Below, one piece after another: positions 5,401 through 58,390 of a DNA stretch of 64,000 nucleotides. Numbering within the stretch: the stretch's first letter is position 1; every line of letters starts with the position of its first letter. The DNA is taken from the NCBI GenBank assembly GCA_964463255.1, contig CAYXBC010000024.1:5587-69586 (forward strand), read 5' to 3'. The stretch comes from an uncultured Candidatus Peribacteria bacterium. GTDB lineage: Bacteria > Patescibacteriota > Gracilibacteria > Absconditabacterales > Absconditicoccaceae. Position numbers and translations under genes: made by a program. The notes beneath the pieces are model-generated. The model was not told where the DNA came from and searched no databases. It saw nothing but the letters and a program-made list of their open reading frames with translations.

Positions 5401-6075
5401 CGAAATCGCCAACAAGACGATACCTATCCATTTCCACCGATTTACTCTGAGTTTATCACTTCTGAACTCATGTGTTATCTCACTGATAATCTCTTTGTAA
5501 GGAAGCATATCTGACTTCATATATCGGACCATATATCCTAGACCTAGGAACAATATCCAGATAACTATACCCCGGATCAAATGAACCATAGCGAAGAGAT
5601 AGATGATGAGCAAAAAGATACCGAGTCCGAGTCCAAAATTTATCAGCATTTCCTGCCATCTTGTCTCCTTGAATTTTATAATTTTCTTGGATATCCGTGT
5701 CCCGAAAGCTGCCAATCCCACAATCATATACATACCTAGGAAATAGATAATCAAGGTATTGAGTATCAGGATAAGCAATCCTGCGGATCCTCCTATGATA
5801 CTATCTTTGACGAGAATCATAGCTATCGAATCCACTACCAATGCGAGAGGGATGATATATACAAAGAATTTCTTCACATCGAAAGATTTCGCTTTGATAA
5901 TATAGACGATAGGGATAAGCACGGAAACAATAGTCCGGAGTATTAATTTCCGGTTTGCCCGGCTTGCAAGCATTGTCTGATAATACGTGTGGTTCGCCAT
6001 AAATTCATTGAATATCGACACTCAAAGGAAACTGAGCATGAAGATACCGATGATCAAGAAGATCTTTTGTTTCAT
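2461..6075 (-). CDS. large polytopic membrane protein (1204 aa) with a C-terminal soluble domain; possible GT-C-like glycosyltransferase
   Basis: ORF-track pieces 5269..6021, 3646..4827, 3190..3402, 2866..3183 and 2650..2862 are all in one frame, separated only by TGA. I traced the gaps and found no TAA/TAG. ATG at 6075, TAA at 2461-2463. Many TM helices in the N-terminal two thirds. The function is a guess. Confidence 0.75.
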
Positions 6076-16703: not shown

Positions 16704-16755
16704 ATCGGGCTGTATCAAAAAATAAATATGATTTTGAATATTCTTCTCTGTCTGA

Positions 16756-34200: not shown

Positions 34201-34643
34201 GCGAAGTGTTGGTAGCCAATATACGTTTTGTAACAAGCGAACCGAGACAGCAGGTAGCTATAGACAATTATATTCCTGCAGGTACGGAACTCATCAACCC
34301 TAATCTTTCTACGGAAAGCACCTATACCAATAAACTACAAAATACAAGCACACCACAGATGGGTGCTGACGGTTATGGCTATGGATACCAGTGAGATTCA
34401 GCTCCGGAGACACAGACGCAAAGTGTAAATATCCAGACATTTGCCTGTGATCAAGAAGAGTTTAGGACAGAAAGACACTTCTGCTATGTAGAGAATCTGA
34501 GTCCATGAGCATATACGCTTATGTCCTTATTGAGAGTAACGCATGCAGGTACATTTGCCGTCAGACCTACCATGATTTTCGAATTCTATCATCCGGAAAA
34601 TTTTGGAAGGACCTTCGGCCAACAGTTTACGGTAACAGAATAA
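28281..34643 (+). CDS. bacterial alpha-2-macroglobulin family protein with thioester motif (2120 aa)
   Basis: Nine ORF-track pieces are all in frame 0, and every gap was traced (TGA only). N-terminal TM. MG-domain hallmarks RPMYKPGDTVYYKGILR and EEYHKPVFK. FKDTAYRNA. Thioester site VYGCLEQ at 32937-32957. TAA at 34641. Confidence 0.85.
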
Positions 34644-34646
34644 AAA

Positions 34647-36713: not shown

Positions 36714-36926
36714 GAAAGAAGAAATATCTTTCGGGAAAGATACATTCCCTTATTTTTTATAGAGCAAAAAAATGTAGCTAGAGAGAACAATACAAAATAT
36801 AAAAAAAAGAATAAATGTCAATTATATAAGAGAAGGAAACATTGCTAAACTTGACGAGAACCCTTTTCCGGTATATACTTGGAAGGATAGTATTCCATCG
36901 TCATTTTACTCCTTTCTGATATACAG

Positions 36927-39900
36927 ATGAAACTCCATCATCGTATCGGTTCCCACCTCAAAAAACATCACAAGAAGTATCTTTTCGGGGCGTTCTGATC
37001 ATTTGCACTCGTCAAGATGCTGCTCCTGTTTGCAGGATTTTTTGGGATTATCCAGCATAGCTGGACATTTGCATCTGAGTGATGTGAAACTTTCGTAGAT
37101 CAGCCAACATGTGAATCGTCTAGTTGTTTTTGGAATATAACTGATACTACCTGTATAACAAACGCCACAGCAGAAGCTAATGCGAACTTACAGGTAGCAA
37201 AAGATTATCTATGAATGCTAGGATCAGATTACCCAGACGATTATATAGCAACAAGCGTAGGAGCAGTGACATCAGGATTTGCATTACCAGAAACCAATGA
37301 TGCAGAAAAGATCACAAAAACAAACGCACTTAATGCTGCATATGCATGATTAGTGACAAATTTGGATGCTGCAAAAGTGTCAGCGGCGACAAAGGTTCAA
37401 GCTGACTATACGGCAGGAAGCTGGGCAGTCCTCACAGGTGCATTAGCATGATGACGAGAATGAAGCGTGGATAGTAGAAATACAAAAGCGAACGCAATCA
37501 ATAATGCAATTGCAGCTTTAGTTCCTATTGGTGAAATGCCTGAAGGGGTATATCCCTATGACGCTAAATTCACCATTCCAGTAGGGTATGTAAAGATAGT
37601 GGATGATACTGCCAATCCTAAGTACATGGTCATTGCAGCTCAATATCCATCTGATAATGGGTATACGTATACGGACATGAAATCATATATAGCTCCACAT
37701 AATTATATGCTACCGACCACAGCATTAAAAGATATGCTGACAATGGGTAATCATACATCGACACGGGTCATTGAATCTGAAGTTACTGGATGAGAATGAT
37801 GATTATATGATATAGGAAATCGGAATGAACGGGTAAGTGACCCCACATATACCAATGATTGATGATATGGGTATCATTACAATCTTATGTGAATACAAGA
37901 ATATCCAAGTTGAAAATCCTTTTATGCAGAATGAAACTATATAAACGATTGGCCATCATGACGAGCAAAAATAAGACTTTTCTATGCTCCAAATATGGTT
38001 GATAGTTGAAATATAGTGACTAAATATGGCTGTGCAACAGATGCGTTAACATGTGATTTATCAAATACAGGTATCGTAACTATTGCGCCAGATGCTTTCA
38101 TGCATCACACAAATTTAACAAGTTTGAATATTTCCAACAATCAGATTAGCACTATCGAGAGCTGAACGTTTTCTGAGCTTAGTAAGCTCAATCAATTGAA
38201 ACTGGGCAATAACCAGATTTCTTGATCGATAACCGCATCAATGCTACGTTGACCATCAGATCTAGAATGATTATTCCTAAACAATAACAAAATAACTTCT
38301 TTCGATAATGATGTCTTCCTATGACTTACGCACTTGCGTCAATTCCAGTTTGATTATAATTTCCTTAGCACGATGCCGGCATCCATCACGGGGCTTGCAA
38401 ATCTGCTGCTTGGTCGGTTAGTCCCTGAATATAATTGCCGAGATACCGGATCTATGGACAGCTATGTCATAGAATTTATGAATACGAATGCGAGTCAAAG
38501 CTATCGACAGGATCATATCAACACCGGCTGTCCGGTATGTGGAGATGGGATCATAAACGGGAATGATATATGCGATGACGGCGACAATAATGGTACGCCA
38601 GAATATTGTAATGCTACCTGTACTGCTATACTTCCACCGGATGCTGATGCTGATGGTATCGCAGATGCTTATGATAATTGTCCTTTCGAAGCGAATCCAG
38701 ACCAAGGAAATACACAGGTAAGTTTTGCGAAAGCGAATGCTGCCAATCGGGCCTTATCAGGAAATCAGGATCGTATCACGGATAATGTACGACTCACCAG
38801 ATGAGCTACCAAAAGTTTATTCAATGCAAAAACAGAAAGCAGTTATACAGGTACAAGTCCATTAGACACAGAATGGAAAAATGGAGGATGTGATGCTAGT
38901 GGCACCTTTATGAAATGGGACACATGGATAAATAATGCTCCTGCTGCAAAAGTGGATGTCCCCGCTTGCGTGCACCTGATCACCGATGATAGGTATTTGG
39001 ACATTATGCTTACATTCCGGAGCAGTACCTGATTCTCCTATACGAGGGAGAATATCCATGGAGCTGCATGTACTGTGTCCGAAGAGAGCACAGCTATAAT
39101 AAATACATATTATGGATCATGATCAGCATATACCACCAATCGAACCAGCAATACTTGTAATCTAGCAGATATGACCGTAAAATATATCAATAATTATGCG
39201 ACGAGCGGATATGATAAGATCCCAGAATATCTATCAGCAAATACTATCTATGTCCTGCTCCCATGAGCACATATCACATCACGATATCAGATAAATCTTG
39301 CAACATGCTCAGCCATTATAGGGAGTGGAGAGGTAAAACTTTATTCTACTACGCAACGTGATAATATATTGTATGCACTTAACCAAAAAAACATCATCAT
39401 TGATGCTATCAATATAGATGGAATACAGGATGGTATCTGAGGCAATCACTATGCAAATAGCAACTGAATAATGTTTCTGGCTACTTCGGATAGCACTATC
39501 AATGAAGTAAAAGCACATGATAACCAAACATATGGAATACATCTCCATAATTATGCCACCAACAATACGATTAGCAATAGTCAAATCTATAATAACTGAG
39601 GGCAGTGAATCCGTATACAAGCAAATTCAGACAATACAATCATTGACAATATGCAAGCATTCAATAATGGATACTGAATATTATTGGATACTACAAACAA
39701 CAACACTATCAACAACACACAGACATATAACAATAACGGTGGTGGGATATATCTCTACAATTCTGCAAACAACACCATCAACAATACACAGGTATATAAT
39801 AACCAGAATTGAATTTTTATGGTCAACGGAGATACGCACAACAATACGCTCAATAATGTACAAGCCTACAATAATGCTTATCGTGGAATAGAGATGAATA

Positions 39901-42900
39901 ATTCCAATAATAATATCCTCAACAATATCCAGAGTTACAATAATGTATATGGAATAGAAGACGGATGAGACAATAATACCTATTATGGGACATTAAAGGT
40001 ATTTGGAAATGATGCTAATCTATATTGATGGTCTACGCTTATGACATGATCTGATTCAGAAGATTTCTCATGATGAATATTGGATACGGTATGAACCATA
40101 TCTTGTGATCGAATAACTAATCCTATGGACAGTAGTGAGGCATTTCTGGTAACCACTCCTGCTTGTGACAGTAGATGATATAATAATGGTTGGATACCAA
40201 CATACGATATAAAATATCTTTACGGAGCAAATATTCTCAGACAGACGAAAGCTGCACAGGATAGTGGAGAATGAACGCCTGTATATACTTGGTGAGGGAT
40301 ACCATATGTTCCGACAAAATATATAGCAGAAAGTAATCCACTTCTCAACGGATCGCTTCTCTTGGCATCAGGACAATCCTATGTGCTAGAAAATACTCTT
40401 CAGATTCATTTGACGACAGCAGAACCTTCCATATATGTACTCTCCGGTGATTTTGTATGATCGCCTGTTTCGGGCACCATACAAAGTGCAGCTAGGGCAA
40501 CCGTAAGCTTGACTGCATGATACGGTATCAAAAATATTTCCGTAAGCTATAGCACAGGAGAGAAACAAAGAATATTCACAAAAAAAATCTGATATATATC
40601 AAGTATGGATAACTATTGTGAGATGGTAAGTGATCTTCCTCGCGCCCAATGTGACGCACTCATCGATCTTTATATCAGTACGGATGGTGATCATTGGAAT
40701 TGGAGCAATAACCGGTTTGGGTCTGGTGATATAACTCCAGAAACCGTATGTGATAATCGGTATGGGGTAAGTTGTTATGATGATAATGGTTCTCTTTATG
40801 TCTCTTATCTTTCTTTATCTGAGAATAATCTCTCTGGGGCTTTGCCAGAAACGATAGGTAATCTTACTTGATTGGGAAATCTCTATCTGGATGGGAATCA
40901 TATTACGTCATTACCAGAATCCTTGGGTAATCTCACCTCATTAGGAGAACTCAATCTCTATAACAACGCATTAGTAGTATTACCAGAATCTTTCGGTAAT
41001 CTCACGTCATTGGCATATCTGTATCTCAATAGCAATGCATTAGCATCCTTACCGGAAAGCCTGACACAATTGAGTAATCTAAATTATATCAATATCAATA
41101 ATAATGCTATCTGTCCCTATGCATTGAGTGGCAATCTAAGGGATTTCTTGGATCAATATAATGAACAGGATAAGGGTGATTGGAGGAATGTCCAGGATAA
41201 AGGTGCCTGCGATAGTGATAATGATGGGGTTATGGATCCAGGAGACAACTGTCCTCTTGTAGCAAATACCGATCAAGCAGATCGGAATAAAATAGAATGA
41301 TGAGGAACGCCTGTTACCTTTACCAAGGCTAATTATGCAGATTGGACGCTTCCGGAAAATCAGGATTGCATCACATCAAATGTCTGTATCACCAGACAAG
41401 ATGATAGAGGTATTTTCAATGCAGTGTCAGAAGAATATTTTGATCGGGACAATAATAGCCCTAAGGATACACAGTGGGCAATGGGACAATGTAGTGATAT
41501 GGGGTCATTGAGTTTTGATAATTTGTTTGATTATGGATATTCTCCTTCCCATTTGATAGGTGATGCTCTGTGTCTGCATCTTATTTCAGAGGATAAATAT
41601 TACGATATCACTTTCAACAACCGGACCTCAGGTGAAGAAGAAGGTGGGTGAGGATTCTCGTATACAAGAACTGAATTTATAAACAACAAAGGTGATGTCT
41701 GTGATTGTAGTGATAATGCATGTTATGCAGGGAATACAGGAAATGATATCAGCGGAGCACCGGTATGTAAATTATGAGAAGACGCATGTTATCCCGATAC
41801 CGATGAAGATGGTGTACATGACAATAGAGATAACTGTATCTCTGTGCCGAATCCAGACCAAGCAGATACGGAAGTTTCTCAGATTTCATTCACCAAAGAA
41901 GATCGAGCTGACCCTACTGACCCAGCAAACCAAGATCATATCACGTCAAATGTCTGGCTTACGAGAGGAGATTATTATCCCTTATATAATATAAAGTATC
42001 AAAATTTCGGAGATGTCGAAGACAATAGCACAGCTCCTACCGATACAGAATGGGCATATGGTGAATGTGTTGATAAAGATAATCTTAATCGAGATTCTCG
42101 AGTATATTATATTTACTATAATTTAGGAAATCCTGTATGTCTCCATACACTTTCAGACAACAAATATATCGATATGGTATTTGATTCTCGGACAAGTGAT
42201 GATGGATGAGGATTCTCCTATACAAGAACAAAATATGGAGATGGAACAGGTGACGCTTGTCAAAATGTTTATCCTATAGTTACGCAAGGTCTTGGAGATC
42301 ATGAAGGAGTATTTACCATAGCATGATTATCAAGTGCTACGATAACATTCAATAAGCCTATTGCAAATATAGAGCATATAAAGCAGCTTATCGCTTCATG
42401 ATCAGATAGTGCTCCTACATTCAACTGGTCAGAAGGGGACTATATATTGACGATAAGCAATGAGACGGAAGAAGATATGAGATGGACGAGACCGATAGCA
42501 GGAAATCTTACTGATGCACAATGAAATACTTCATACAATCAAGTAGTGATCATGACGTCCGTAGAGACGGATAGTGAAGACCCTTTGGCTGGGTCCGGAA
42601 ATGCCTGTACTGTAGACAACACTTCTATCAGCATAGATATCCCATTACATACATCAGGGGCGAAAGTGAAGGTCGATTCATGTGATATTGAATACTCAGG
42701 AGATACCAAGATTATCACGATACCGGAAATAGATGTGACGGTGATGACAGATCTTTCTGATTCACCAGTGAGCGTACAGATACCTCAATTCACACGTATT
42801 ACCTCAGATCTTAATTTCGATTATAATATCTTCACACCGACCGTCAAAGAGAATTCTAGCGTCACAGCAGGTACAGACCAGACGGTACAATCCGTCATAG

Positions 42901-45900
42901 AACTTGGATATGCGTCATGAAGCCTCTTATTCGACCAATGAGTAAGGATACTCATTCCTGGGCAAGCAGGCAAAAAGGTAGGATATACACATGGAGGATC
43001 ACCGCTTACTGAGATTACCGCAATATGTGCTAGTGATAGCCAAACCATAGGTGATGATCTAGCTTCAAATAGTGATTGTAAAATAGATGTAGGAGCTGAC
43101 CTAGTCGTTTGGACAAAACATTTTACGACATTCGTTACCTATACCCAAAATGCTTGAGGAACCGGAGAACTCAATAGCGAGAATCTTGTGACTCAATATC
43201 TCTGTACAACCGATGCAACATGATGCGATCTTTCAAATATGGAGATAGCGACCATAGCACCAAATGCATTCATCAACCATACCATGCTGACGCGATTGAA
43301 TCTTAGCAACAATCAGATGAGCTGATTTCTTGCAAGTGCCACATTTGATGGTATACCCCAATTGCAATATCTCGATCTCAGCTACAATACTATCACCAGT
43401 GTGGATCTTTCCTGATTCGCTAATCTCACCCTGCTTAAGATAAACGATAATGCACTGACCTCATTGCCAGAAGGACTGACTGGACTCGCATCGTTATCGG
43501 ATGGGACATGACTTGATATCTCAAATAATTACATTAATTATACTCCATTTTCTCTTTCGACATTGTGATTTATCGATGCAAAGTCAGTGAATAGTGGATG
43601 GAGAAGTACCCAGATTTTCTGCGGAAATGGAGTGATTGAATGAAATGAAATATGTGATGATGGAATAGATAACGGAAACCAATCATACTGCAATCTTACC
43701 TGTACAGAGGTATTGCCTCCTGATGCAGACGGCGATGGCGTGCCGGATACTACGGACAATTGTCCTCATGTATCCAACGCTGATCAAACCGATACAGATA
43801 GCAACGGCATATGAGACGCCTGCCAACGCTCCGATCCGATAGCTCCTACAGCTACAGTAGAATATTCTATAGGATTACCAACCAATCAAGATGTGGTAGC
43901 TACGCTGACATGATGGAATGAAGCGATAACATGAGTGAATGCTTACCAGCATACCTTTACGGGAAATGGAGAATTCATATTCACCTTCACGAGTCTCTCT
44001 GGTCTCGATGGAAGTGTAATAGCCAGAGTAGGTTGGATCGATAAAGAGAGTCCAGTGATTACGATGATTGATAGCGGAACGCTTGAGATCGAGTGGGGAA
44101 GTGAATATACGGATGCTTGAGCGACTGCGTATGATAGTGTAGATGGAAACATCACCACTGGCATCATCACGAGCGGAACCGTAGATACGAATATACCAGG
44201 AAATTATATTGTAGAATATATGGTGACTGATAATGTAGGGAATGAGACATATACTATAAGGATAGTAAATGTAGTAGATACTACAGCGCCAGTAATTACC
44301 TTGAATGGCGGTACATGAATCGTGTATGTGGAATACAAAACTACTTATAGTGAATTATGAGCGAGCTGGAGAGATACACATGATGGAAGTGGAGTGGTGA
44401 TACAGATAAGCTGAACAGTGAATACGTGAGTACTCTGAACTTATACATTGCTATACAGCAAAGTAGATGCTGCAGGCAATGTAGCGACACCAGTGACAAG
44501 GACGGTGATGGTAAGAGATACTACGGCCCCAGTAATTACCTTGAATGGCGAACCAGGTCTGAATATCACACAAGGTACGACCTATACGGATGCTTGAGCG
44601 ACTGCACATGATAGTGTAGATGGAAATATCACCACTGGCATCATCACGAGCGGAGTAGTAGATACCAATAGAACATGAATATATATGATAATATATACCG
44701 TAAGAGATGCTGCAGGTAATCGAGCAACACCAATTACAAGATACATTACTGTCGTACAAAAGTGAGCGCCTACAGCAACGATAGTATATAGTAGTGAGAA
44801 TTTGACCAATCAAAACATAATCGCTACGGTGACATGATTTTCTGAAGCAGTGAGTGGTATGAATGCAGTGACCCACACCTTCACAGGAAACGGAACATTC
44901 ACCTTTACATTCAGCGACCTCTATGGAAATCCAGGAAGCATCATAGCGAATGTGACATGGATCGATAAGGTAAAACCTGTAGTGACACTAAATAATAGTG
45001 GAATGATATATATCGAATATGGAAACACTTATAGCGATGCAGGAGCGACAGCCAACGATAATATCGATGGGAATATCACCATCGGTATCATAACGAGTGG
45101 AACGGTAAACGCATGAGTACTATGAACCTATATGATTACCTATACCGTGAGCGATATTGCAGGAAATACCTGATCAGCTACGAGGACAGTGATGGTAAGA
45201 GATACTACGGCGCCAGTAATTACCTTGAATGGGGGCACATGAATCGTGTATGTGGAATATGGTAATGCTTATAGTGAATTATGAGCGAGCTGGACAGATC
45301 TTCGTGATGGAAGCGGAGTTGTGATGCAAATAAGTGGAATGGTAAATACATGAGTATTATGAACCTATACCATTACCTATACCGTGAGCGATATTGCAGG
45401 AAATACCTGATCAGCTACGAGGACGGTGATTGTAAGGGATACTACGGCACCAGTAATTACCTTGAATGGCGGCACATGAATCGTGTATGTCGAATACAAA
45501 ACTACTTATAGTGAATTATGAGCGAGCTGGAGAGATACACATGATGGAAGTGGAGTGGTGACACAGATAAGCTGAACAGTGAATACATGAACACTCTGAA
45601 CTTATACATTGCTATACAGCAAAGTAGATGCTGCAGGCAATGCAGCGACACCAACTACAAGGACGGTGATTGTAAGAGATACTACGGCGCCAGTAATCAC
45701 ACTTATCGGCAGCGGAACCATAAATATCGAATATGCTACAGTATATGGTGAATCCGGAGCCAGATGGTCAGATATTCATGATGGCTCATGATTCGTTGCC
45801 TCTATCAGCTGATACGTGGATACCTGAACGCCAGGAACATATACATTGCTATACAGCAAGACTGATACCTCTTGAAATACATGAACAGCAAGCAGAATAG

Positions 45901-47138
45901 TGAAGGTAGGTATGATTAGCGCCATATTGAGCGGAGAGAGAAATGCTACAGGATCTGCGATGTTCGACGGAGCGACGACCACCGGAGTGATATTGAGCTG
46001 AACAGGTAGTTTGACGCTTTCTAGCGAAGAGACAGGGAATAATACGCTCGAGATACCTTCGAATATAGGTGCTATCAATGCAAGCGGAGGTACATGGGAT
46101 GGAACAATTTCTGCACCAGAAAAAGATTTGAGCGGTGAGGCGACCCAAAGTGAATTATATTGATTTTTGCCTGTTTCTACCAACAATACGACATATCAGC
46201 ATGAAATCATAACTACTGTAAAAGTGGGATCAAATGTCGAGCTACGACCAACAACCGGATACTTCACAGTCACTATCTATGTCGTAGGATATAATGGGCA
46301 GACTATCAAAGTCTTTAGATCAGAAGACGGTGATACTCGGACCAAAAATTCACCCGATGAAACATGTTATGTCACAGGCAATATCTGTAGCTTTAGGACC
46401 GATCACTTGAGTTTCTTTGCTCCAGCAAAAGTAGTCGCAAGCCAAGTAGTAACAACTCCTAGCGTATGATGATGAGGCTGATGAACGACCCTCATAAAAG
46501 ATATGTGTCCAGGACAAAGGGATTGTTCAGATAGTTATTATGATAAGCTTTGCGGTGTATGTCCAGCATCAGCGACAGGTCATGCAGCAGCGAGTACGAA
46601 AGTACCAGCGAGCATAGTGAATTCTCCCTATTCTTCACAGTCTAATGAGGCATATCTCCGGGCATACAGCTACGATATCACAACCATGCCTACCATCCAG
46701 AATGCGAATATAGATGGCAATCTCATGAGAAGGGATATGGCAAAGATGATAACCAACTTTGCAACGCAAGTCATGGGAATGAAAATCACGGCTCAGAGTT
46801 GATTGAACTGCAAATTCTCCGATATAGCATCCCTCGGAAAACAGACCCAATATTATATTCTTTATGCATGCAGATTGTGACTGATGTGATATGAGAATGA
46901 TGGTGTGACGGTACAGAAAAACTTTGATCCTAATAAAGAAGTCGATAGGAGACAATTCGGAACAATCCTTTCCAGAGTTATCCGATGAACGAAATACAAT
47001 GGATGAATCCCATATTATATGAACCATTTAGCCGCATTGAAGAGGAATGCAATCATGACCAAGATATCTACGCCGACGATGAAAGAGATAAGAGGGTTTG
47101 TGATGCTGATGATGAAGAGAGCGTTCGAGATGAAATAG
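36927..47138 (+). CDS. giant multidomain cell-surface protein (3403 aa): LRR blocks, TSP3 calcium-binding repeats, parallel beta-helix repeats, Ig-like repeats, SLH-like anchor
   Basis: Thirteen ORF-track pieces are all in frame 0. I traced most long gaps codon by codon (37791-38334, 38802-40605, 42918-43935, 44118-44460, 45789-46167, 46800-47138) and read the remaining gaps, including 45117-45608, by translation; I found only TGA. N-terminal TM leader. Repeated DADGDGVPDxxDNCPxxxNxDQ. NN(T/A)IxNxQxYNN beta-helix repeats across 39.4-40.0 kb. DTTAPVITLNG Ig-like repeats across 43.8-45.9 kb. TAG at 47136. Confidence 0.8.
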
Positions 47139-47193
47139 GCATATGCTGCCCAATACCTATCCATAAAAATTTTTACTCTTGTCTGATATACAG

Positions 47194-47997
47194 ATGAAAT
47201 TCCATGACCGTACCGGTTCCCACCTCAAGAGCAGAGTATTCTGACCTTTTACTTTCATTAAGATGCTATTAGTGTTTGCAGGATTTTTGGGGATTATCAC
47301 CCAAGCTAGGTATATTTATGCCGCATCTACACAAAATATATGAAGTAGTTGAGGAACAACCATAAAACAAGATATCTGTGCAGTGAGGGACTGTAGTAGT
47401 AAGTACTACGATGATGTCTGTGGAATCTGCCCTAAGACCACACAGGGCACTGTGGGAATAACGGGAACTAGTGTACCAACAACAGGATCGATAGTAGGAT
47501 CGACGTACTCTCAGGAACTCAATAGTGCCTACCTCTATGCATACAGCGTAGGAATCACCAGTATGCCAACTATCCAAAAAGCCAACCTTGATGGTAAATT
47601 ATTAAGATCTCATATGGCCAAGATGATGGTGGAATATGCAATGAATGTCTTGGAAAAGAAAGCTGATACCAAAGCAGTATGTACCTATACGGATATCGCT
47701 GATCAAAGTGAGGAAATGCAGACATATATGAAGCTTGCATGTGCATATGGTCTCATGGGTATACATACCAACAACAAATTCAATCCAACCAGTGAAGTAA
47801 CGAGAGCAGAATTTGCTACGGTCTTATCAAGATTATTATATGGTGCCAGATATGATGCCACAGCAGGAGCAAATTATTATGAAAATCATCTTGCAGCATT
47901 AAAAACAAAGAAGATAATCACCAACACCACTCCCACTCTCAAAGAATTAAGAGCTAATGTAATGCTGATGCTTTGGAGAGCTACGACCAGAAAATAG
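47194..47997 (+). CDS. small paralog made of the same N-terminal leader plus a Cys-rich linker plus the SLH-like anchor module (267 aa)
   Basis: MKFHDRTGSHLK..MLLVFAGFLGII matches the giant protein leader. The C-terminus FNPTSEVTRAEFATVLSRLLYG...LMLWR matches the anchors at 12.3 kb and 47.0 kb. TAG at 47995. Confidence 0.75.
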
Positions 47998-48506: not shown

Positions 48507-49427
48507 ATGACTATATCACAAGACATCATCCAAAGGACTATTGATAAGATGATAAGAAGCCAAGAGAAAAAGAAAGAGATTACTGGTTATTTAGAAGCTA
48601 ATAAGCCACATTTATTATGATCTATCCGAAAGAAGGGAAGGATAAAAGACTGTTGTAATGTCTTAATCTTCCGTGATTATCTCAATGGAGAAAAGAAGCT
48701 CTATAAAACCAACTTCTGTAAATACGATAAGTTCTGCCTAGCCTGTGCTACTAGGAGATCAATAAAGATGATCCAAAAATTTGAAGCCTGAATTGTTCAA
48801 TATGGATTGGATACGAAAAACTGGTATCATATATCATTGACGGTTAAGCACAATAATCGTCAGTCTTTAGGATTTCTTATGGATAAACTATGGAAGGCAA
48901 AAGAGAAACTAGCCCAAAGGTTTAGAAACTCCAAAAGAGATAATCATAAAGCAAAGAGTTTTATGCACAATTTTGACGGGATAGTTAGTTCTGTAGAGGT
49001 AACCTATAGTCAAAAAAGCGGGCGACATCCACATATCCATATGCTTGTTTGTACTGATAAAGAAATACCAATAGAATGGTCTAAGAAACTAACAGCACAT
49101 TCAAATAGAGAGCTTCAAAAAGAATGGTATCAGATTACGGGGGATAGTTATTCCGTAGGTATAAGAAAGGTAGCGGTTAATAAAGACAATTATAGCCGTA
49201 AAGGTATAGGGGAGGTATTCAAATATGCAGTTAAATTTTCAAAATTGGATATACCTCAACTGTCGGAAGTGATAGAAATTCAGCAAATCAAAAGATATCG
49301 TTTCTTTGCTACCTATGGTATCTTTAGAGGTTGGAAGATAGAAAAACCCAATATCATAGATAATGATAGGTTCGTAGAAAGATCTTTTGAATATCACAAT
49401 GATGAATTTGAAGAAAAAGACATATAA
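48507..49427 (+). CDS. rolling-circle replication initiator (HUH endonuclease, Rep_1/pC194-pUB110-like)
   Basis: Motif 1 HISLTVKHN, motif 2 HPHIHMLV, motif 3 EVFKYAVKFSK. Two in-frame TGAs join ATG 48507 to ORF 48807..49427. Confidence 0.8.
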
Positions 49428-49562
49428 GTTGATATATTAGATAATTAGACAAAAGATTCGTGATTTTAACTATCAAATACAACAGGTACAAAATTTGCAA
49501 AAATTTCGATTCTGAATATAATTACTAGAGAGTAAAAACTCTTTAATTTTTGAAACACAGGT

Positions 49563-50357
49563 ATGAAAAAAAAGGTTACATCAATTCACGACTTTCTAGA
49601 GCAAGCCAAGGATATGACACCCACCCAGGCGGGAAAAGAATTTTATTGATTGACGGAAAAAGAAATTAATGAAATCCTATCAAAAAAAACCGAAGTTTCA
49701 AAGACAGAAATAGAAACCACAAAATCCACAGAAGAAGAATCGAATGAAATAATGTCTTCTAAACTTCCTTCAGCAGTAAGTAAGCAGGGGAAGGATGCAG
49801 TTGAATATTTTTTTAAGAATAAAGAAGTAAGTCATTCGAATGTTATCGTTGAGGTCCAGAAACTAGGGAAGAAATGACTGATCCAATATAAGGATACAGG
49901 AAACGGAACTTACGAAGTCCATTTTAATCTCCCATGATGTAAACTGAAACGATATATGCCCCCAGATACTAGCATAGCGGATAGTAGTTACATATACGAT
50001 CTTTGGGACGACACCAAGATAACACAGATAACACAACAGGAAACAACAAGAAAGAGACTACGAAGTGATGAATGAAAGAAATATTTGACCGACAAAGAGA
50101 AGAATGAAAAAAAATCACTTATCAGTAAGGAAAACTTCCTAAAGCTGTGAAAGGCATTGTATCCTAATGGAACCGAGGAAGAACAGATATTAGCAATAAT
50201 GATAGCGACATGATTTTATGGATATATGTGGTTATCAGATAAAACATCAGAATATCAGCTTGCTGTCAATTGTTATCTTCATTCAGATGACCGTTCATTC
50301 TTCAAGCTGAGTTTTGATCTCAGCTCATGCAGTATCATTTACACAAGCACTTTATAG
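49563..50357 (+). CDS. DGR target protein 1 (264 aa) with C-terminal variable region
   Basis: ATG 49563 with six in-frame TGAs. Paralogous to 53293..54087 and to the C-terminal third of 50432..53218. It ends ...CSIIYTSTL-TAG at 50355. Confidence 0.8.
50256..50350 (+). repeat. DGR variable repeat VR1
   Basis: Aligns to the reverse complement of 55785-55884. By hand alignment, 17 of 18 substitutions fall at TR adenines. Confidence 0.85.
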
Positions 50358-50431
50358 AGATAGACCCCGCAGAGCGGGGTAAACTCTTTGACTCTTTGTC
50401 CCTTTGACTCTTTAATTATTACACTATACCA

Positions 50432-53218
50432 ATGGAAAACCAATTGAACACATCATCTCCATCAGTAGATAACAAACAAGAAAAAGCTATCCAGCTTACA
50501 AGTTTGATAGGAGATTTTCTGATTGATCCCTTGCATGCAGATATATATACCAAACTCAAAGCAAAATGATCCAAGGAAGATGTCCAGTTTCTCAAACAGC
50601 TTAGAAAATGAAAGGAAGGTATCAACTCTCGTACATCCCAAAAACTCTGAGAGACTTTGAGTAATCCTTCTCCAATAATAACCCCAGACAGTCTAGAGTT
50701 ATTGATCAGTCAGGATATTTCGGATACAGAGATAGATGCTATTAGGAAGTTATATGCTGATCCTGAAGTCAGGGAGATTTATTTTGATGAATATGAATCC
50801 AGAAAAGATGATTTGGATCTACTGAGAAGATGATATAAACAACTAGGTAAAGTCCAGAAAATAGATGATATTATCTCCAAAGCAAAAGATAAAATACTGG
50901 GAATAAGGATAGCGGCGTTTGCTGCGAACAGACAATTATCTCCAAACGAAATAATCCATATCACCAAACTCCATGAAGCAATATCACAACAAGAATCTGA
51001 AAAGAAAAACATGCTGAAAATCAGAGAGATTGCTACAGCATACAGACATCAGCAACTCAAAACATATAAACATCAGATGGATACAGAATGATTTGTCATC
51101 ACTCCATCTAGAGTTAAAATTATTGATGAAATCATAGAAAAGATATTACTTGGTCAAAATGTGTTGCTTACTGGACCGACAGGTACAGGTAAAACAGTAT
51201 TGGCAATCCAGGCAGTCAAAACCATAGCAGCCAGACTACATATCTGACTGGAAGCAGTACAGGGTAAAGCATTAGCTCATGAGCTACAAAACAACCCTGA
51301 TGCTGAAAAACTTTTGGATGAATTTGTAGTAGTGCTTTCGGGTCATGCAGGTATTACTCCTTCGGAATTTATCGCCAAGATGTGACTGAAATGAGATGAC
51401 AAATGAGGTACACAAACATACACTCAGCTAGGTAAGGTACTTAAAGCATTTGTGGATGGAAACATTCCTATTATTGATGAAATAGATTTGATACCAAATG
51501 ATGTACTCATGAGGATCAAACATCTGTTTACGTTGAAATCAGGCAAGACGTATTCACCACAAGAAGACGGCAACCAAAAACATAAGCTATTGACCACTAC
51601 GGTCATAGCTACAGCCAATATCAAATCAGCCAAACATCCAGATAGACAGGAGATAGATCCTGCTATAGTCAGACTTTTGCCTGGTGTTGAAGTAAAATAT
51701 CTGCCTAGTGAAGAAACGTATGATTTGGGATTGATCAATATCATGGAACCTAAATGATTTGTATATTGAGTAGGAGTAGAGAGCTTATCACATACTGATG
51801 GTATATTATATCATCTTATCGAAGCACTCAAACAGATAGAAGATAATTATCTTGGTAAATGAACATGACTTACAATATCCAATAAGTCCAATATGTTTCT
51901 GCAAAAAGCGGTATTGGAACTATGAAGTTTTGTAGCGTTATTCAAATGATTCAAAGAATCAGGACAAGATTTTGCTGAATTTATTAAAGCCAAAATAATA
52001 AAATTTGTGAGCAATGGTGCGTATCCCAAAAATGACAGAATGCTGCTTATCAATATTTTTTCTGGCAAAGGTTTGGTTACACAAAATGATGTAGATTCAT
52101 TATTGGAAAGGATGTCTGATATTTCAAAAGAAGAACTTGAACAAAATATACTATGAGGAACTAGTTTCACATTTCCGCAGGACACTATACGTTTTGTTGA
52201 CCCTTATCAGCTTGCAAATTTTGATCCTTACAAAAAAAGAAATCTAGAAACTTTGGAATTGGAAGATAAAAATATGAAGATAAAATCAACATTGAAACAA
52301 ATAAGTGCACATCTACTTACATTGCCAAACGAGGATACAGAAGATTTGCAGGAAAATTTGGATAATATATTGGATGAATATGTTAAGAACCCCGATTATG
52401 AAATAAACCATGAAACAATAGACCAGATATTTGGCTGATTGTATGAATTATGATTAGTGACCCAATTATTGGAATGTAGTCGTTTGGGAGACTATTGGTC
52501 ATCTAGGATAGAAATGATAAAACTTTTTGACAGTAAAGATAAAAATGGTAAGGGTCTATTTGAAAATACTGAGATTCCATCAAAGGAATCTATTTCGCTT
52601 GCAAAGGAAGTAAAAGAAAATATTTCTTCATCTCTACCATCAATGGTAGCTAAACAAGAAAAGGATGCAACCAAATATTTTACTGACAATAGCGAAACAA
52701 ATCATTTAGAAATTATCACGGGAATACAAAAATTAAGGGATAAAAAAATGATCACCTACAAGGATACAGGAAACGGAACCTACGAAGTCCATTTTAATCT
52801 CCCATGAAGCAAACTAAAACGATATATGCCCTCAGATACAAGCATAGCCGATAGCTCCTCTAAGTATACACTTTGGGATGATACTGAACTAAAACCCCAA
52901 GAAACAACAAGAAACAAGCTTCGAAGTGATGAATGAAAAAAATATCTGAAAGATAAAGAACAGAAAGAGAATAAGAATTTATTAAACAAAAGCGATTTCC
53001 TAAAGCTATGAAAGGCTCTTTATCCTAATGGAACCGAAGAAGAACAGATATTAGCAATAATGATAGCGACAGGCTTTTATGGATGGATGTGGTTATCAGA
53101 TAAAGACTCAGATTATCAGCTTGCTGTCTTCTGTTCTCGTAAATCATTTAACCGTTTATTCCTCAAGGTGAATGATGATCTCAACCATTGCAGTATCATT
53201 TACACAAGCACTTTATAG
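50432..53218 (+). CDS. DGR target protein 2: AAA+ ATPase (MoxR/AAA_5-like) fused to the variable C-terminal module (928 aa)
   Basis: ATG 50432. A single frame was traced through TGAs to TAG 53216. Walker A LLTGPTGTGKT, Walker B IPIIDEIDL. The C-terminal 260 aa are colinear with targets 1 and 3. Confidence 0.75.
53117..53211 (+). repeat. DGR variable repeat VR2
   Basis: 15 of 16 substitutions relative to the TR fall at TR adenines. Confidence 0.85.
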
Positions 53219-53292
53219 AGATAGACCCCGCGTAGCGGGGTAAACTCTTTGATACTTTGTCACTTTGACTCTTTAATTCTTGGAATATATAT

Positions 53293-54087
53293 ATGACAAA
53301 AAAGATTACATCAATTCATGACTTTCTAGAGCAAACCAAGGATATGACACCTGCACAGGCGGGAAAAGAATTTTATTGATTGACGGAGAAAGAGATAAAA
53401 GAGATTCTATCACAGAAGACCGAGAAGAAAAATGAAGATGCCAATCCCAAAGACCTTGGTCCTGTAAAGGGAAAGGAATCAAATGAGAAAATAACATCAG
53501 TGCTCCCATGAGCAGTAAAAAAACAGGAAAAAGACGCTACTGATTATTTTACCAAAAGTAATGAAACTAATCATCTGCAAGTTATCTCAGAAGTACAGAA
53601 ATTAAGGGATAAGAAAATGATCACCTATAAGGATACAGGGAATGGAACCTATGAAGTACATTTCAATCTTCCATGAAGCAAAATGAAACGATATATGCCA
53701 CCTGACACGAGTATAGCAGATAGTAGCTATAAATACGATTTTTGGGATGATACAAAAATAACTAATCAGGAAACGAAAAAAAGTAAACTCCGAAGTGATG
53801 AATGAAAAAAACATCTAGAAGAAAAAGAGAAAAAAGAACATAAAAAGTTACTAACCAAAGAAGAAATACTAATATTATGAAAAGAATTATGCCCGACAGG
53901 AACTGAAGAGGAACAGATATTAGCAATAATGATAGCAACAGGCTTTTATGGATATATGTGGTTATCGGATAAGATATCAGAATATCAGCTTGCTGTCATT
54001 TGTTATCGTGAGTCAGATGACCGTTCATTCTTCAAGATGACTATTGATGACTCCCATTGCAGTATCATTTACACAAGCACTTTATAG
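53293..54087 (+). CDS. DGR target protein 3 (264 aa)
   Basis: ATG 53293, TAG 54085. The N-terminus MTKKITSIHDFLEQTKDMTPAQAGKEFY-G-LTEKEI is nearly identical to target 1. Confidence 0.8.
53986..54080 (+). repeat. DGR variable repeat VR3
   Basis: 16 of 16 substitutions relative to the TR fall at TR adenines. Confidence 0.85.
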
Positions 54088-54156
54088 AGATAGACCCCGC
54101 GTAGCGGGGTAAACTCTTTGATACTTTGACCCTTTGTCTCTTTGCCTCTTTTATAT

Positions 54157-54498
54157 CTACGATACCTTATTCCATCCAGCAAGCTGTTTGGATATTTCTT
54201 CAATCAATGGTTGTAAATCTACATAGTCTAAATAAGCAAATCCTCATAAATCTTTGCAGAGTCTGACCAAGAGTCTGATCAGTTCAATCTGTTCTCTCGC
54301 ATTATTGAGATATTCTTTTCTTTGTTCACGAAAACTATTTGCCTTAAAAATTGTTATTACAAGTTCTACTAGACTCGTATGTAAGTGTTGACCTACATTG
54401 TATCTATAACTTTGCGGAAGTTTCTTACATAGACGGGTTGTAGTAACCAGGAGTGTATAACATGATTTGTAGATAGGTAGTTCATTATAGATTACCAT
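54157..54498 (-). CDS. avd: Avd-like accessory variability determinant (four-helix-bundle / 23S rRNA IVS protein family, 113 aa)
   Basis: MVIYNELPIYKSCYTLLVTTTRLCKKLPQSYRYNVGQHL... It extends through TGA 54244 to TAG 54157-54159. The ATG overlaps the RT stop as ATGGTAA. Confidence 0.7.
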
Positions 54499-55721
54499 CA
54501 GAGTAGTTTGTAAAAAATATAAAGTGATTGTTTGTATTTCTTTTTGACTTTTCTTAATTTGATACTAATCTTGTCCCAAGGAGATTTAGCTTTGAAATAA
54601 TTTCATCGTTTGACTGGCATTCACGATACCATACCTTGCCTCAGGCGGTAAGTAGACCAGTGTTTCATCATACCCAGATAACTATTACAGGTACTGCGAA
54701 ATTTCTCCCATTGTGTATAAGAGTTTGGTGGATGTGATTTCCGTTCATTCATTTTTTTCTTCCAACGTCAGATAGTTCTGGTACGTGGTAGTATATGATA
54801 TGGTTTGATTCTCACTCAGCAGAAAGTAACTCCATGTCTGATTGGCTGAAAATATCTTTTGTTCGGATGTAACTTCAATTGCAATCTTTCATCTAGAAAT
54901 CTTTCTATCTGTTTGATACAGTTTTGGAGATAAGATTTATCAGTATGCATCAGCACAAAATCGTCCATATATCTTCCATAGTATTTGATACCTAGATGAT
55001 GTACTATAAATTTATCCAGCTCGTACATATAGATATTTGCAAAAATCTGACTGGTAAGATTTCATAATGGCAATCCTGTCCCAATCTTGCTTGCAAATAA
55101 TGATTTATGTTTAGGAAAGCTATCCCGTTGCCTGATGTTACCTATGCGATGATAATGCATGGTAGGCTCATCCATAATTATCGTAGAAATAATTTTCCAA
55201 AATCGTTGGATAGAATATGGTAAATGTGATTTATTAGTCTCTAGGATATTTCTGACGAGACCAGATAAAATGGTTTTGTTTATAGACATAAAATAACTGG
55301 AAATATCATATTTAGCCACCCATGCTTCATTAGTGTAATTATCGCTCACGGACCTCAACATTCTCTTAACTTGCTGTATGGCATGATGAGTTCATTTGCC
55401 TGGTCTGCATGCATAACTATTATCCAAAAAAATATGTTCAAGGATTGGATTAAGATGTCTATACATTAGATGATGTACGATACGATCACGGATATGAGGA
55501 GCAAAAATTTCTCTAGGCACAGGATCGAATATTAGGAAACAAGTATATTCTGATGTCTGATACTTGCCAGAGATAAGTTCATCATATAATTTAAGTATTT
55601 CTACTTCCTTGTTGATATCAAAAGCGATCAAGGTATGCTTATTTGATTTTCACTTTTTCATTGTCTCATAGGCTTGGAATATATCATGAAGTAATTTCTG
55701 CTTCTCATCTCAGTTTAGCAT
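54492..55721 (-). CDS. DGR reverse transcriptase (409 aa)
   Basis: Three ORF pieces plus tails are in one frame across TGA. Contains RPGK-G-THHA, the DGR-type motif LPL-G-NLTSQIFANIYM ([LIV]GxxxSQ) and the catalytic YMDD. TAA at 54492. Confidence 0.9.
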
Positions 55722-55784
55722 AATTTATTTTTATACAAAATAAAAAAGTATATCCCATGATGTAGAATATACTTTAGTAGTCTA

Positions 55785-55884
55785 TGCAAAGTGTTGTGTA
55801 AATGATACTGCATTTGTTGTTATCATTATTCATCTTGTTGAATTTACGGTTATCTGATTTACGATAACATTTGACAGCAAGCTG
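55785..55884 (-). repeat. DGR template repeat (TR)
   Basis: The minus strand reads cagcttgctgtc AAA tgt tat cgt AAA tca gat AAC cgt AAA ttc AAC aag atg AAT AAT gat AAC AAC AAA tgc agt atc att tac aca... It is non-coding, lies just 5' of the RT gene, and is adenine-rich exactly where the VRs vary. Confidence 0.85.
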
Positions 55885-56254
55885 CAGCACAATTGTCACT
55901 ACTTTATTTGCCAGTTGCCTGATACTTTATGCCATTGATTCATATCAATGGGAGTGACTGCACTTTATAGGATAGACATATTGATTTTGCATACTTTGGC
56001 AGTGTCCAATTGACTACAGCCAAATTCCAGCCTAGACATACTAATCTTCTGGGTGTTATTTACAAACAAAAAATTTGTTTATAAATTTGTCTCAAAATTT
56101 GCTCTTCCTGCGAGATGAATCCGTTTCAGGATGAATCAGGCAAGGACGGGTAAATTTTGTCCAACAAAATTTGTTTATAAATTTAGTTCAAAATTTGCTA
56201 AAATAAGTGTTTTGCTTATAATTGTAGAGCAACATTATTACATAATTTCATCAC

Positions 56255-58390
56255 ATGAAAAACACACCTCAATCAAATTATGAATCATTTGATATAACCA
56301 AGTACACTCCTTGGATAAATTTGCTGTCCAAAAACAATAATATCCAGATAAATATAGATAACTCATTTTCCCATACTGCCGCTATCAATCTACAAGATTT
56401 ATCTAAACCACAGATTATTCTCAATCTTAGACTTATGAAAGAAAAATATAATTATTCTGATGATGAGATAATGTTTGATATAGGTCATGAGCTTGGTCAT
56501 TTGGATGAAGAAACGCAATTGCAAAGTACTCAAACATGAAAAGATATTGCCCAACAAAGAGTCCAGAGACTTGAAGAAAAATGAAATCTAGCAGAATCTT
56601 ATCATATCTTGGAAAATGTCCTAAGAGACGTTTGGGACAATAATGACCTTATCAGTCCTAGAAAATTACCCGTTCTCAAAAATACCTGTTATACCAATTA
56701 TAGGGATAAAATGTTCAAAGAGACAGACTATTGTCAGCTACCAAAACATATGCAGTTTAATAATACTATCATCAGAGAAGCCATGGTTCCTGATCAGCAA
56801 TGTACTATCGATCCTAATATTAGAAAGATTATTTCAAGATTAAAAAGAAGTGATGTTTTATCGAAAACTACTGTATGAACACTACAATCCAGACTTCAAA
56901 ATATACGGCAGTATGTAGAACCTGTTTATCAAAAACTTTTGCAGGATGACATAAAAAAGCAGGAGGATGAAAACAAGAATCAGGAGAAAGAAAAGAAGGA
57001 TAAAAAAGGTAATCAGAATAAATGAAAAGGGAATCCATCACAAAACAATAATCAAAGCGGTTGAAATCAAAATAATCCTGGTCAGAAATCTTGAGAGAGT
57101 CCAAATTCTCAAATAGCTCAAACTCCTAAATGAAAAAATAATAAATGAGCAATCAAACAACTTATGCAAATACTTTGATGAGAAAAAAATAAATGATGAG
57201 ATTCACAGCCACCTAAAAACAATCAAATCAATCCATCGGATGCTATTTCTAATGAAGGCAAAAATCCTTTTGATGGTCTCTATCAGAATATGCCCAAGAT
57301 ACCTCATCTCCTGGAACAGGAACTTTCGGATGAAGATAAGCAAAAACTTAGACAAGTTTTACAGGATATTTATGATGAAAAAAATAGAGAAAAGACCCGT
57401 GAAGAATTAGAATTGGAAAAGAGAGCAAAGAATATGTGAATCAATCCTAGCGACAAAGATGCATTTCAAGAGACAGTCCGTAAGCTAAAGGACTATGATA
57501 AATTCCTTGCTCAGTTGGAACAGATTATAGACAAACATACTGGTAACGCGGTTATGCAAGAGATAGAAAACATATTTCAGCAAATCAGGTCGCATAGAAC
57601 TAAACCACGCTACAAAGCCAAAGGACCAGTAGATATAGACCATGGCTATAGGTTACATCCTGGAGCTATCGCCTGAGGTATCGCAGAAGTGAAGTGAGGT
57701 AATTTCAATCCAGAGATGTTTGAAATGGATATTAAACATGAAAAGCCCGAACAATTGACAGGCAGGTTTGAATTAACACTTATAGCAGATGGAAGCTGAT
57801 CTATGACACAAAACGATAAAAATAGACAACAAAAGATAGCTGTACTGCTTATCTTAGAATCTCTCAAACGTTTGCATGATAAGCTATCGGAAGAAAAATA
57901 TAACCTCACAGAAGGAGTAGAGTTTACAACTCAGGCTATTATGTTCCTGGAGAAACTAAAATGAGTTTTGGATTGTAAAGATTTGTGACCAGATTTTTCT
58001 GATCAAGAAAGGTTGTATACCTATAGTTCTCTTGATCATGCTAACTGATGAACAAACGACTATGATGGTCTCCAAAAAGTAATTGATCATATGAAGTGAT
58101 ATTCTCATGAACATCTACAGGAAATACAATCATGAAAAGTAAAAAAAATTATTATAGTCATGTCAGACTGATGATCAGATGATGAGACAAAAATGAAAGA
58201 AAAAATCAAAACATTAAGAGATATGTGAGTGTTGGTATATGGAGTAGGTATCACTTCTTCTGGAAGTCCTATGGTAGACCTTTTTCAGTCTACAAATCAA
58301 TCTTTAGGATATGGGCAGGTATGTACACAAGTACAGGATTTAGCTCAGACACTCAAAGATATCCTTTGGATGCATTTGGAAAAATTATAG
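56255..58390 (+). CDS. HExxH zinc-metalloprotease-like N-terminus plus a Q/N/K-rich linker plus a C-terminal von Willebrand factor A domain (711 aa)
   Basis: HELGH at about 56500. MIDAS-like LIADGS-G-SM and VMSD-GG-SDD. The whole frame 56540-58388 was traced (TGA only). TAG at 58388. Confidence 0.75.

Follow-up and report, generated by a model that had tools for sequence, protein, structure and literature searches.

The stretch of contig CAYXBC010000024.1 analysed here, 64,000 nucleotides long and hereafter called the window, carries between positions 49563 and 55884 the parts of a diversity-generating retroelement (DGR). Three target genes (T1 to T3), each ending in a variable repeat (VR), lie on the plus strand, while a reverse transcriptase (RT) gene, the accessory gene avd and a single template repeat (TR) lie on the minus strand; a gene for a protein with a vWA domain follows (Table 1). 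The targets are adjacent and come in two architectures, a short form (T1 and T3) and a fusion to an AAA ATPase domain (T2). A reading made earlier from the letters of the DNA (the sequence-only reading) had proposed that the DGR is complete, a single TR serving three targets with VRs. All of these parts are found where it had placed them, and the RT match, the bAvd match, the adenine pattern of the repeats and the restriction of assembly differences to the VRs uphold the proposal. With a probability of about 0.92, the element is a chromosomal DGR of a bacterium that uses genetic code 25, probably a member of the Absconditabacterales (SR1). It is complete and active, and its multiple, opposite-strand and AAA-fused targets are traits already described for DGRs from Candidate Phyla Radiation (CPR) bacteria.

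Table 1. Position of the DGR parts and of adjoining features in the window (strand: +, plus; -, minus;., none assigned)
Feature	Position	Strand	Remarks
Promoter-like TTGCAA-16-TATAAT	49495-49522	+	Upstream of T1; repeat D4
T1, short variable protein	49563-50357	+	264 amino acids, code-25 open reading frame; no Pfam match
VR1	50256-50353	+	18 mismatches to TR, 17 at adenines; starts at codon position 1
GC-rich hairpin after VR1	50364-50380	.	ACCCCGC-AGA-GCGGGGT, begins 7 nt past the T1 stop
T2	50432-53218	+	928 amino acids; N-terminal AAA_5 (MoxR/midasin-like), long helical region, then T1/T3-like module
VR2	53117-53214	+	16 mismatches to TR, 15 at adenines
GC-rich hairpin after VR2	53225-53241	.	
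T3, duplicate of T1	53293-54087	+	264 amino acids
VR3	53986-54083	+	16 mismatches to TR, 16 at adenines
GC-rich hairpin after VR3	54094-54110	.	Between convergent T3 and avd
avd	54157-54498	-	113 amino acids; start overlaps RT stop (ATGGTAA)
DGR reverse transcriptase	54492-55721	-	409 amino acids, 8 in-frame TGA = Gly; RVT_1 E 4.6e-19
A-run, hairpin and T-run between TR and RT start	55742-55775	-	
TR	55788-55884	-	Non-coding; 39 A in the 91-nt core
vWA neighbour	56255-58390	+	711 amino acids; HELGH at residues 78-82, C-terminal vWA with DGSGS metal ion-dependent adhesion site (MIDAS)

Genes of the element and their genetic code

The whole window (1-64000) is written in genetic code 25, in which TGA stands for glycine. 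When TGA is read as sense, open reading frames (ORFs) of 100 codons or more add up to 125 kb in place of 42 kb. Gene calls made with table 11 were discarded and replaced by code-25 translation, as they left RT and T2 in fragments: the RT region falls into ORFs of 70, 99 and 79 amino acids, each break being a TGA. The assignment to glycine follows from two observations. In-frame TGA codons of the RT gene are found in RPGK-G-TH and LPL-G-NLTSQ, at both of which the Bordetella bRT has a glycine, and the Walker A motif of T2 homologues, translated in the databases with TGA as tryptophan, appears as LLTWPTWTGKT. Likewise, those family members from code-4 databases that were aligned have a tryptophan where the window has a TGA-encoded glycine, and the database protein P0001 equals T3 except for tryptophan at the TGA-encoded positions (an exact-sequence look-up of P0001 found it not on record). 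The sequence-only reading had tacitly translated TGA as glycine, correctly, but had left the code of the host unstated. The point is of practical weight: tools restricted to table 11 fragment most genes of the window, and DGR finders that lack code 25 miss such loci or call them degraded.

Code 25, together with the fact that the closest named relatives are metagenome-assembled genomes of Candidatus Absconditabacterales, is the basis on which the host is probably assigned to the SR1 lineage. A phage origin finds no support: the cassette has no blastn match among 50,697 phage records, and its flanks are cellular. Elsewhere in the window are genes for ArgRS, TyrRS, SecD, the class A penicillin-binding protein PBP1 and CorA, as well as an 815-amino-acid ORF resembling topoisomerase I (TopA), whose counterparts in two related loci (L006 and L007) have Toprim and Topoisom_bac domains. 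These housekeeping genes and the lack of a match in the phage records indicate that the window is part of a cellular chromosome.

The RT frame proposed by the sequence-only reading is open only with TGA read as sense, and it harbors the motifs LGNLTSQ (within LPLGNLTSQIFANIY) and RYMDD. Its segment LGNLTSQIFANIY followed by RYMDD aligns with IGSLTSQLFANVY followed by RYMDD in bRT, where the motifs read IGSLTSQ and YMDD. The best PDB match is 8ub7_A, a 328-residue RT that we take to be the Bordetella bRT (E 1.4e-36), and the best group II intron RT has an E value of 2.6e-14; the motifs and the ranking of these matches define the assignment as a DGR-type RT. The gene overlapping the RT stop had been called Avd-like, and its product is indeed recognised by the Pfam family bAvd (PF22296) with 47.6 bits, above the curated cut-off of 40, while a search of the PDB sequences gave no match. 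The A-run, hairpin and T-run that separate the TR from the RT start are kept in the related loci L005 and L009 with other stem sequences (RNAalifold consensus of -10.5 kcal/mol), and could form either a terminator-like element or a structural part shaping the TR RNA.

Among the targets, T1 shares 60-73% identity with T3 and with the C-terminus of T2, the gene starts of T2 and T3 having been revised to those of Table 1. The N-terminal domain of T2 is matched by Pfam AAA_5 (E 7.9e-9, 36 bits for a cut-off of 22) with GPTGTGKT as Walker A motif, and searches against the PDB return weak matches to midasin. Orthologues of 920-930 amino acids are found in L001, L005 and L009.

Template repeat, variable repeats and traces of rewriting

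A repeat search returns three inverted pairs of 91 nt with 80-82% identity, linking 55794-55884 in the TR to 50256-50346, 53117-53207 and 53986-54076. When the minus-strand TR is aligned without gaps to the plus-strand VRs, 48 of the 50 mismatches fall on TR adenines, and the computed alignment returns for each VR the very numbers counted in the sequence-only reading (18, 16 and 16 substitutions, of which 17, 15 and 16 at adenines). With 39 A among the 91 nt of the TR core, the enrichment at adenines that it had anticipated is highly significant, the hypergeometric P being 6e-7 for VR1, 5e-6 for VR2 and 1e-7 for VR3. Searching the 64-kb window with the TR in which every A is replaced by N yields the TR and the three VRs, and no other copy. 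Beyond the core, a 1-nt indel is followed by the homology CACTTT, which is included in the bounds of Table 1, and similarity then decays. The 3' ends of the VRs and of the TR are separated by indels after CACAA, and as they differ in this way they resemble the sites of initiation of mutagenic homing of the prototype, IMH for the VRs and IMH* for the TR.

The TR is non-coding and adjoins the RT gene, within the intergenic region 55722-56254. The VRs lie within coding genes, and all three are in frame, beginning at codon position 1 and finishing with 4 codons left to the stop; 26 of the 31 TR adenines of the variable zone occupy codon positions 1 and 2. The usual design of a DGR TR is to have AAY codons only. 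To note, the present TR has four AAA and one AAG codon, which adenine mutagenesis may turn into TAA or TAG stops, while TGA outcomes are read as glycine under code 25. The ATC/ATT codons of the last strand are limited to I, L, V or F, and the columns of the family alignment agree. Past each target stop, at a distance of 7 nt, lies the inverted repeat ACCCCGC-NNN-GCGGGGT with a 7-bp stem, and CCCCGC-N3-GCGGGG occurs three times in 64 kb, once for each VR. Guo et al. 2011 (PMC3240598) describe a GC-rich hairpin or cruciform located 3' of the VR as an element of DGR targets, and by analogy these hairpins may take part in target recognition.

In principle, such repeats could arise without a retroelement: the ends of three paralogous genes could have diverged in the ordinary way or undergone gene conversion, and the non-coding copy could be there by chance. 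Repeats are indeed expected among paralogues as close as T1, T2 and T3 (60-73% identity). The fourth copy, however, is non-coding, adenine-rich and adjacent to an RT gene, and it is its adenines that concentrate the differences; furthermore, positions other than adenines are otherwise identical over 91 nt, whereas the paralogues upstream of the VRs are only ~77% identical. We consider this explanation to have practically no chance of being correct.

Direct comparison of otherwise identical assemblies provides the evidence for activity. Three were used: L010 (ENA ERZ27300140, a 74-kb contig), L011 (ENA ERZ27300176) and L012 (JGI 3300021070). L010 aligns with the window over 22,892 bp without gaps (40327-63218) and differs at 19 positions, all in VR2 (53141-53188), while its VR1 and VR3 are those of the window. 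Eighteen of these 19 differences are at TR adenines (binomial P 3e-37), the remaining one being at the G position of the single non-adenine mismatch of VR2 of the window. L011 and L012, compared from position 53195 over 2,270 bp and 949 bp, respectively, each differ at 8 positions, all in VR3 and all at TR adenines. The same is seen in proteins: P0053 differs from P0005 and P0052 within the VR only, save for one residue (position 43 of P0005), and the 10 residue differences between P0058 and T2 all lie between 904 and 919. Since 22.6 kb of flanking DNA contain no substitution and VR2 contains 19, the rewriting postdates whatever point mutations the region has undergone. Judged by these comparisons, the element is active in nature, VR2 and VR3 having been rewritten between otherwise identical genomes.

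It could still be argued that the cassette is a relic, with VRs diversified in the past and an element no longer functional. Wu et al. 2018 (PMC5758913) note that many database DGRs are inactivated, and a related lineage, represented by L006 and L007, has lost RT and TR. Against this, RT and Avd of the window are full-length under code 25 with intact catalytic motifs, and the 19 differences in VR2 stand beside an unchanged flank; a relic is thus very improbable. The lineage without RT and TR is of interest in its own right. There, a deletion has joined the 3' part of avd directly to what lies upstream of the TR, at 10778-11130 in L006 and 5882-6234 in L007, leaving one target, which keeps the GC hairpin, and the vWA gene. 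Three contigs carry the remaining target (P0006) with one and the same sequence, and this lineage with its unvarying target is a natural control for diversification.

Several observations weigh against the reading as a complete and active DGR. Avd aligns over its full length with the NCBIfam model DivGenRetAVD (E 1.7e-14), yet scores 54 bits where the cut-off is 80. No convincing promoter was found for the TR/RT transcript in a promoter scan that overall did not exceed chance. The evidence for activity being a comparison of assemblies, it shows that variants exist, not when they arose. Finally, the GC hairpin is present in L006 and after VR1 of L009 but absent after both VRs of L005, which makes its role in homing uncertain: it may be a mere terminator.

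The family of targets is small. A single query retrieved 11 clusters from 5.8 billion proteins and a profile retrieved 22, while 32 were retrieved from 1.84 billion cluster representatives; the VR-bearing module itself amounts to ~30 sequences, all from TGA-recoded lineages. L005 and L009 display the order short target, AAA-fused target, avd, RT, TR and vWA gene. Their TRs are identical to that of the window at 85-87 of 90 positions, whereas the proteins are only ~54% identical, and their VR mismatches again fall on TR adenines (20/20, 22/23, 9/10 and 17/17). In L004, two VRs are 868 nt apart, like those of T2 and T3. Among 28 family members, the entropy reaches 2.43 bits in columns of TR A-codons for 0.62 in the interleaved non-A codons (Mann-Whitney P 7e-5), and C237, R239, S241, R244, F246 and C256 are nearly fixed.

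The mechanism proposed for the locus is as follows. A TR-containing RNA, transcribed from the minus strand that carries TR, RT and avd, would be copied by an RT-Avd complex with misincorporation opposite the template adenines. The resulting cDNA would replace the last ~90 nt of any of the plus-strand genes T1, T2 and T3, which have in common a 12-nt 5' homology (CAGCTTGCTGTC), a 3' block (TGCAGTATCATTTACACAA(G)CACTTT) and the GC hairpin just past the stop. About 15-20 codons would be randomised, allowing for ~5e15 possible peptides, and the variable residues would be located between the six invariant residues listed above, at the C-terminal tip of an alpha/beta module of ~190 residues. The RNA intermediate, the homing role of the hairpin and of the 3' block, and the TR to VR direction are transposed from the paradigm of the Bordetella phage BPP-1 and would hold to the extent that the analogy does.

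The resemblance to the BPP-1 DGR (mtd-avd-TR-brt) is otherwise extensive: an RT with IGxxxSQ-type and YMDD motifs, a four-helix Avd, a single TR, adenine-specific TR-VR differences, a VR placed at the very 3' end of the target and followed closely by a GC-rich inverted repeat, and non-identical 3' ends of TR and VR of the IMH/IMH* kind. In contrast, the element of the window resides on a cellular chromosome and not in a phage, uses genetic code 25, has the order TR-RT-avd with avd overlapping the RT stop, faces three targets on the opposite strand that are neither tail fibres nor detectably C-type lectin (CLec) proteins, and possesses a TR with AAA/AAG codons able to become stops.

The element was also compared with the DGRs of CPR and DPANN genomes. 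Wu et al. 2018 (PMC5758913) and Roux et al. 2021 (PMC8144416) report that ~15% of DGRs are multi-target, that components may be on different strands, and that VRs of CPR DGRs are typically unclassifiable with targets devoid of export signals. The CPR set of Wu et al., with its unclassified VR classes UVR1-6, shares with the window a CPR host, targets without recognisable domains, signal peptides or membrane segments, and an AAA-ATPase-fused target with weak midasin similarity, such as T2; midasin-like AAA matches are given there for UVR4 targets (category g1/UVR4). The presence of more than one DGR per genome, as in L005, is a further common trait. According to Dore et al. 2024 (PMC10907252), who cite Paul et al. 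2017, the annotated CPR architecture met most often is the AAA-fused CLec target. The differences lie in the gene order, since the B3 architecture, TR-(avd)-RT, makes up 90% of the set whereas in the window avd follows RT on the same strand, and in the code, as code-25 lineages are not singled out in the text consulted for these CPR studies. Treponema denticola and Stenotrophomonas offer in the same source multi-target DGRs in which one TR serves several VRs with common flanks. Independent diversification of VRs is a shared feature, VR2 being changed in one assembly and VR3 in another, but the three targets of the window are adjacent and of two architectures.

Of the three features that the sequence-only reading had deemed unusual, the number of targets and the antisense TR are thus known in DGRs, and since a target site functions whichever way it is oriented (Guo et al. 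2011, PMC3240598), opposite-strand targets are mechanistically unremarkable. The third stands: the order TR-RT-avd, also found in L005, L009 and L010, is none of the major architectures (B1-B3) that Wu et al. 2018 list. As CPR are known to be rich in DGRs and multi-target and AAA-fused cassettes have been described, the existence of the element as a DGR is unsurprising. Its value is that of a clean natural example, with one TR, three targets and two architectures, two targets caught rewritten, and a sister lineage that lost RT and TR.

The variable module and its possible role

The C-terminal module that carries the VR has no match in Pfam, in the PDB or in BFVD. T1 and T3 have no Pfam match at E <= 0.1, and a scan of 11 family members yielded none even at E <= 10, the FGE-sulfatase and DUF1566 classes of CLec-fold DGR variable proteins included; the family profile gave 0 matches to the PDB at E <= 10, and the profile of a sister family of GFRP type gave no match there. 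For structure prediction, the modelled sequence was the database copy with TGA read as tryptophan, which introduces 5 W-for-G substitutions. A first AlphaFold2 run with 11 sequences reached a predicted local distance difference test (pLDDT) of 60, and the Foldseek result from that model was set aside as meaningless. With 28 sequences, pLDDT increased to 78.1 and the predicted template modelling score (pTM) to 0.70, residues 70-260 being at 82-95. A Foldseek search with this second model returned best E values of 2.3 in the PDB and 0.066 in BFVD. The PDB contains structures of Mtd, TvpA and formylglycine-generating enzyme (FGE). From residue ~185 on, the model is predicted to run beta-alpha-alpha-beta-beta-beta-beta, and a minimal CLec fold would show this same order.

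T2-ATPase homologues carry exchangeable C-terminal modules: the VR module described here, VRs ending in GFRP or SFRP (including those of a second DGR of L005), WG repeats and WD40 repeats. The hhalign comparison of the VR module with the GFRP-type sister modules gives a probability of 0.2%, and one short target of GFRP type resembles T1/T3 in its N-terminal 28 amino acids only; the VR module therefore constitutes a separate sequence family. The second DGR of L005 lies on contig positions 1-6633, and comprises an RT at 4433-5500 as well as two targets whose last residues are GFRPCG; of these targets, one is the C-terminus of a T2-like AAA protein, and the other has the same first 28 residues as T1/T3.

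The interpretation that we find somewhat the more convincing is that the module is a strongly diverged CLec fold, as in all structurally solved DGR variable proteins, and that the locus is an ordinary CPR-type DGR. The order of secondary structures of the model from residue ~185 is compatible with it, the sister AAA-fused targets end in GFRP/SFRP, which is typical of CLec-type VRs, and new CLec variants are what Roux et al. 2021 (PMC8144416) anticipate behind the uncharacterised VR domains of CPR. It has to accommodate, however, an empty Foldseek search of the PDB and BFVD with the second model, the lack of any Pfam match among 11 members and of a PDB profile match, and the failure of hhalign to relate the module to its GFRP-ending sisters. 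These same negative results leave room for a more speculative proposal, which we hold to be rather doubtful: the ~190-amino-acid module (T3 ~70-264) would be a new, non-CLec scaffold that replaced a CLec sensor on an AAA_5 ATPase with a vWA/HExxH partner, resulting in DGR-programmed cytoplasmic recognition in an obligate epibiont. As part of this proposal, the family would be confined to TGA-recoded Absconditabacterales/Gracilibacteria-like genomes. A module of this nature would break the rule of a CLec fold under all DGR variable regions and provide a second natural scaffold for engineered hypervariation. The remark of the sequence-only reading that the module does not look like CLec/FGE thus stands at the level of sequence and of Foldseek comparison of the AlphaFold2 model, but is not proven at the level of the fold.

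As to function, T1, T2 and T3 lack both signal peptides and transmembrane segments (maximal Kyte-Doolittle mean over 19 residues of 0.97-1.24), and no hydrophobic segment is found in the vWA neighbour. The latter is matched by Pfam VWA (E 1.4e-8, 35.6 bits for a cut-off of 23.8), and its orthologues adjoin target genes in L005, L006, L007, L009 and L010. AAA_5/MoxR ATPases commonly act with vWA partners, and the vWA protein is probably the partner of the T2 ATPase. The absence of signal peptides and membrane segments, the fusion of T2 to AAA_5 and the conserved vWA/MIDAS neighbour suggest that the variable tips may be ligand-binding sensors of a cytoplasmic ATPase-vWA machine and not surface adhesins, a proposal to which we give slightly less than even odds. 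The exchangeable C-terminal modules found on T2-ATPase homologues also count in its favour. Two points speak against it: the functional reading is drawn from domain architecture, and PADLOC did not match T1, T2 or the vWA protein to any defence system, nor gave it a meaningful match for the next ORF. It nonetheless makes the AAA_5 and vWA context and the missing export signals a testable lead on the function of CPR DGR targets.

The three variable proteins have a competing interpretation as surface-exposed or secreted adhesins, by which an epibiont would attach to changing hosts. DGRs are enriched in CPR episymbionts, where attachment is what they are usually held to serve (review PMC10221324; Roux et al. 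2021, PMC8144416), and giant surface proteins abound in the neighbourhood (28281-47138). Proteins lacking signal peptides and transmembrane segments fit this role poorly, the ATPase of T2 requires cytoplasmic ATP, and its conserved partner is a soluble vWA protein; adhesins appear unlikely.

The cytoplasmic sensor reading finds an echo in the clade 5 DGRs of multicellular bacteria, which are proposed to diversify sensors associated with MoxR and vWA proteins (Dore et al. 2024, PMC10907252). These MoxR-vWA ternary/STAND conflict systems resemble the locus in having one short and one long, N-terminally extended target, a locus that unites a MoxR-like AAA ATPase with a vWA protein, and targets predicted to be cytoplasmic. 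They differ from it in that their ATPase is usually a separate gene and vWA is often part of the target, whereas in the window the ATPase is fused and vWA separate; moreover, the window has no PADLOC match and its only effector candidate is the HExxH motif of the vWA protein. Most CPR RTs belong, according to the same authors, to an RT clade other than clade 5. The pairing of a MoxR-type AAA with vWA, by which Kaur et al. 2020 define ternary systems as used by Dore et al., is present and conserved in L005, L009 and L010. For the third component of such systems, no VMAP, TIR or Pfam-recognisable caspase- or trypsin-like peptidase was found.

The HELGH motif (HExxH; window 56486-56500, plus strand) also occurs in the L005 orthologue of the vWA protein; the vWA protein of the window has in addition sub-threshold Pfam matches to EAD8, DED and EAD1 (E 0.003-0.05). 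The region could, from its motif, be a metallopeptidase or an adaptor. A near-copy of the promoter-like box of T1 (TTGCAA or TTGCTA, 16 nt, TATAAT, ..TAGAG) precedes the vWA gene at 56195-56222 on the plus strand, and a further partial copy is located at 56070-56103. The boxes before T1 and the vWA gene are the top scorers of the promoter scan mentioned above, with its overall lack of significance, and their near-identity suggests that both genes may be co-regulated.

Genomic neighbourhood

Directly upstream of T1 lies a Rep_1 rolling-circle replication gene (48507-49427, plus strand; Pfam E 2.4e-16). The adjacency of Rep_1 and T1 recurs in L003, L008 and L010, not in L001, L005, L006 and L009. 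On the other side, a large serine recombinase with Resolvase and Zn_ribbon_recom domains is encoded at 60167-61927 (plus strand), its 3' end overlapping a tRNA-Lys(ttt) gene (61831-61906, minus strand). No att-like repeats of the tRNA-Lys region were found elsewhere in the window, and the idea of an integrated element with Rep_1 and the serine recombinase as its bounds is accordingly not established. An Rfam scan of the whole window identified tRNA only.

Giant secreted proteins are encoded at 12291-16859 (1522 amino acids, minus strand) and 36927-47138 (3403 amino acids, plus strand). Both have in common with a protein of 272 amino acids (47179-47997, plus strand) a C-terminal module of ~130 residues with the motif ...AYLYAY..IT.M.TI..A...G.L.R..MAKM...TRA-F-TVLSR..., which may be a cell-envelope anchor. 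The 3403-residue protein also contains internal repeats that are 94% identical, at 44277-44542 and 45438-45704.

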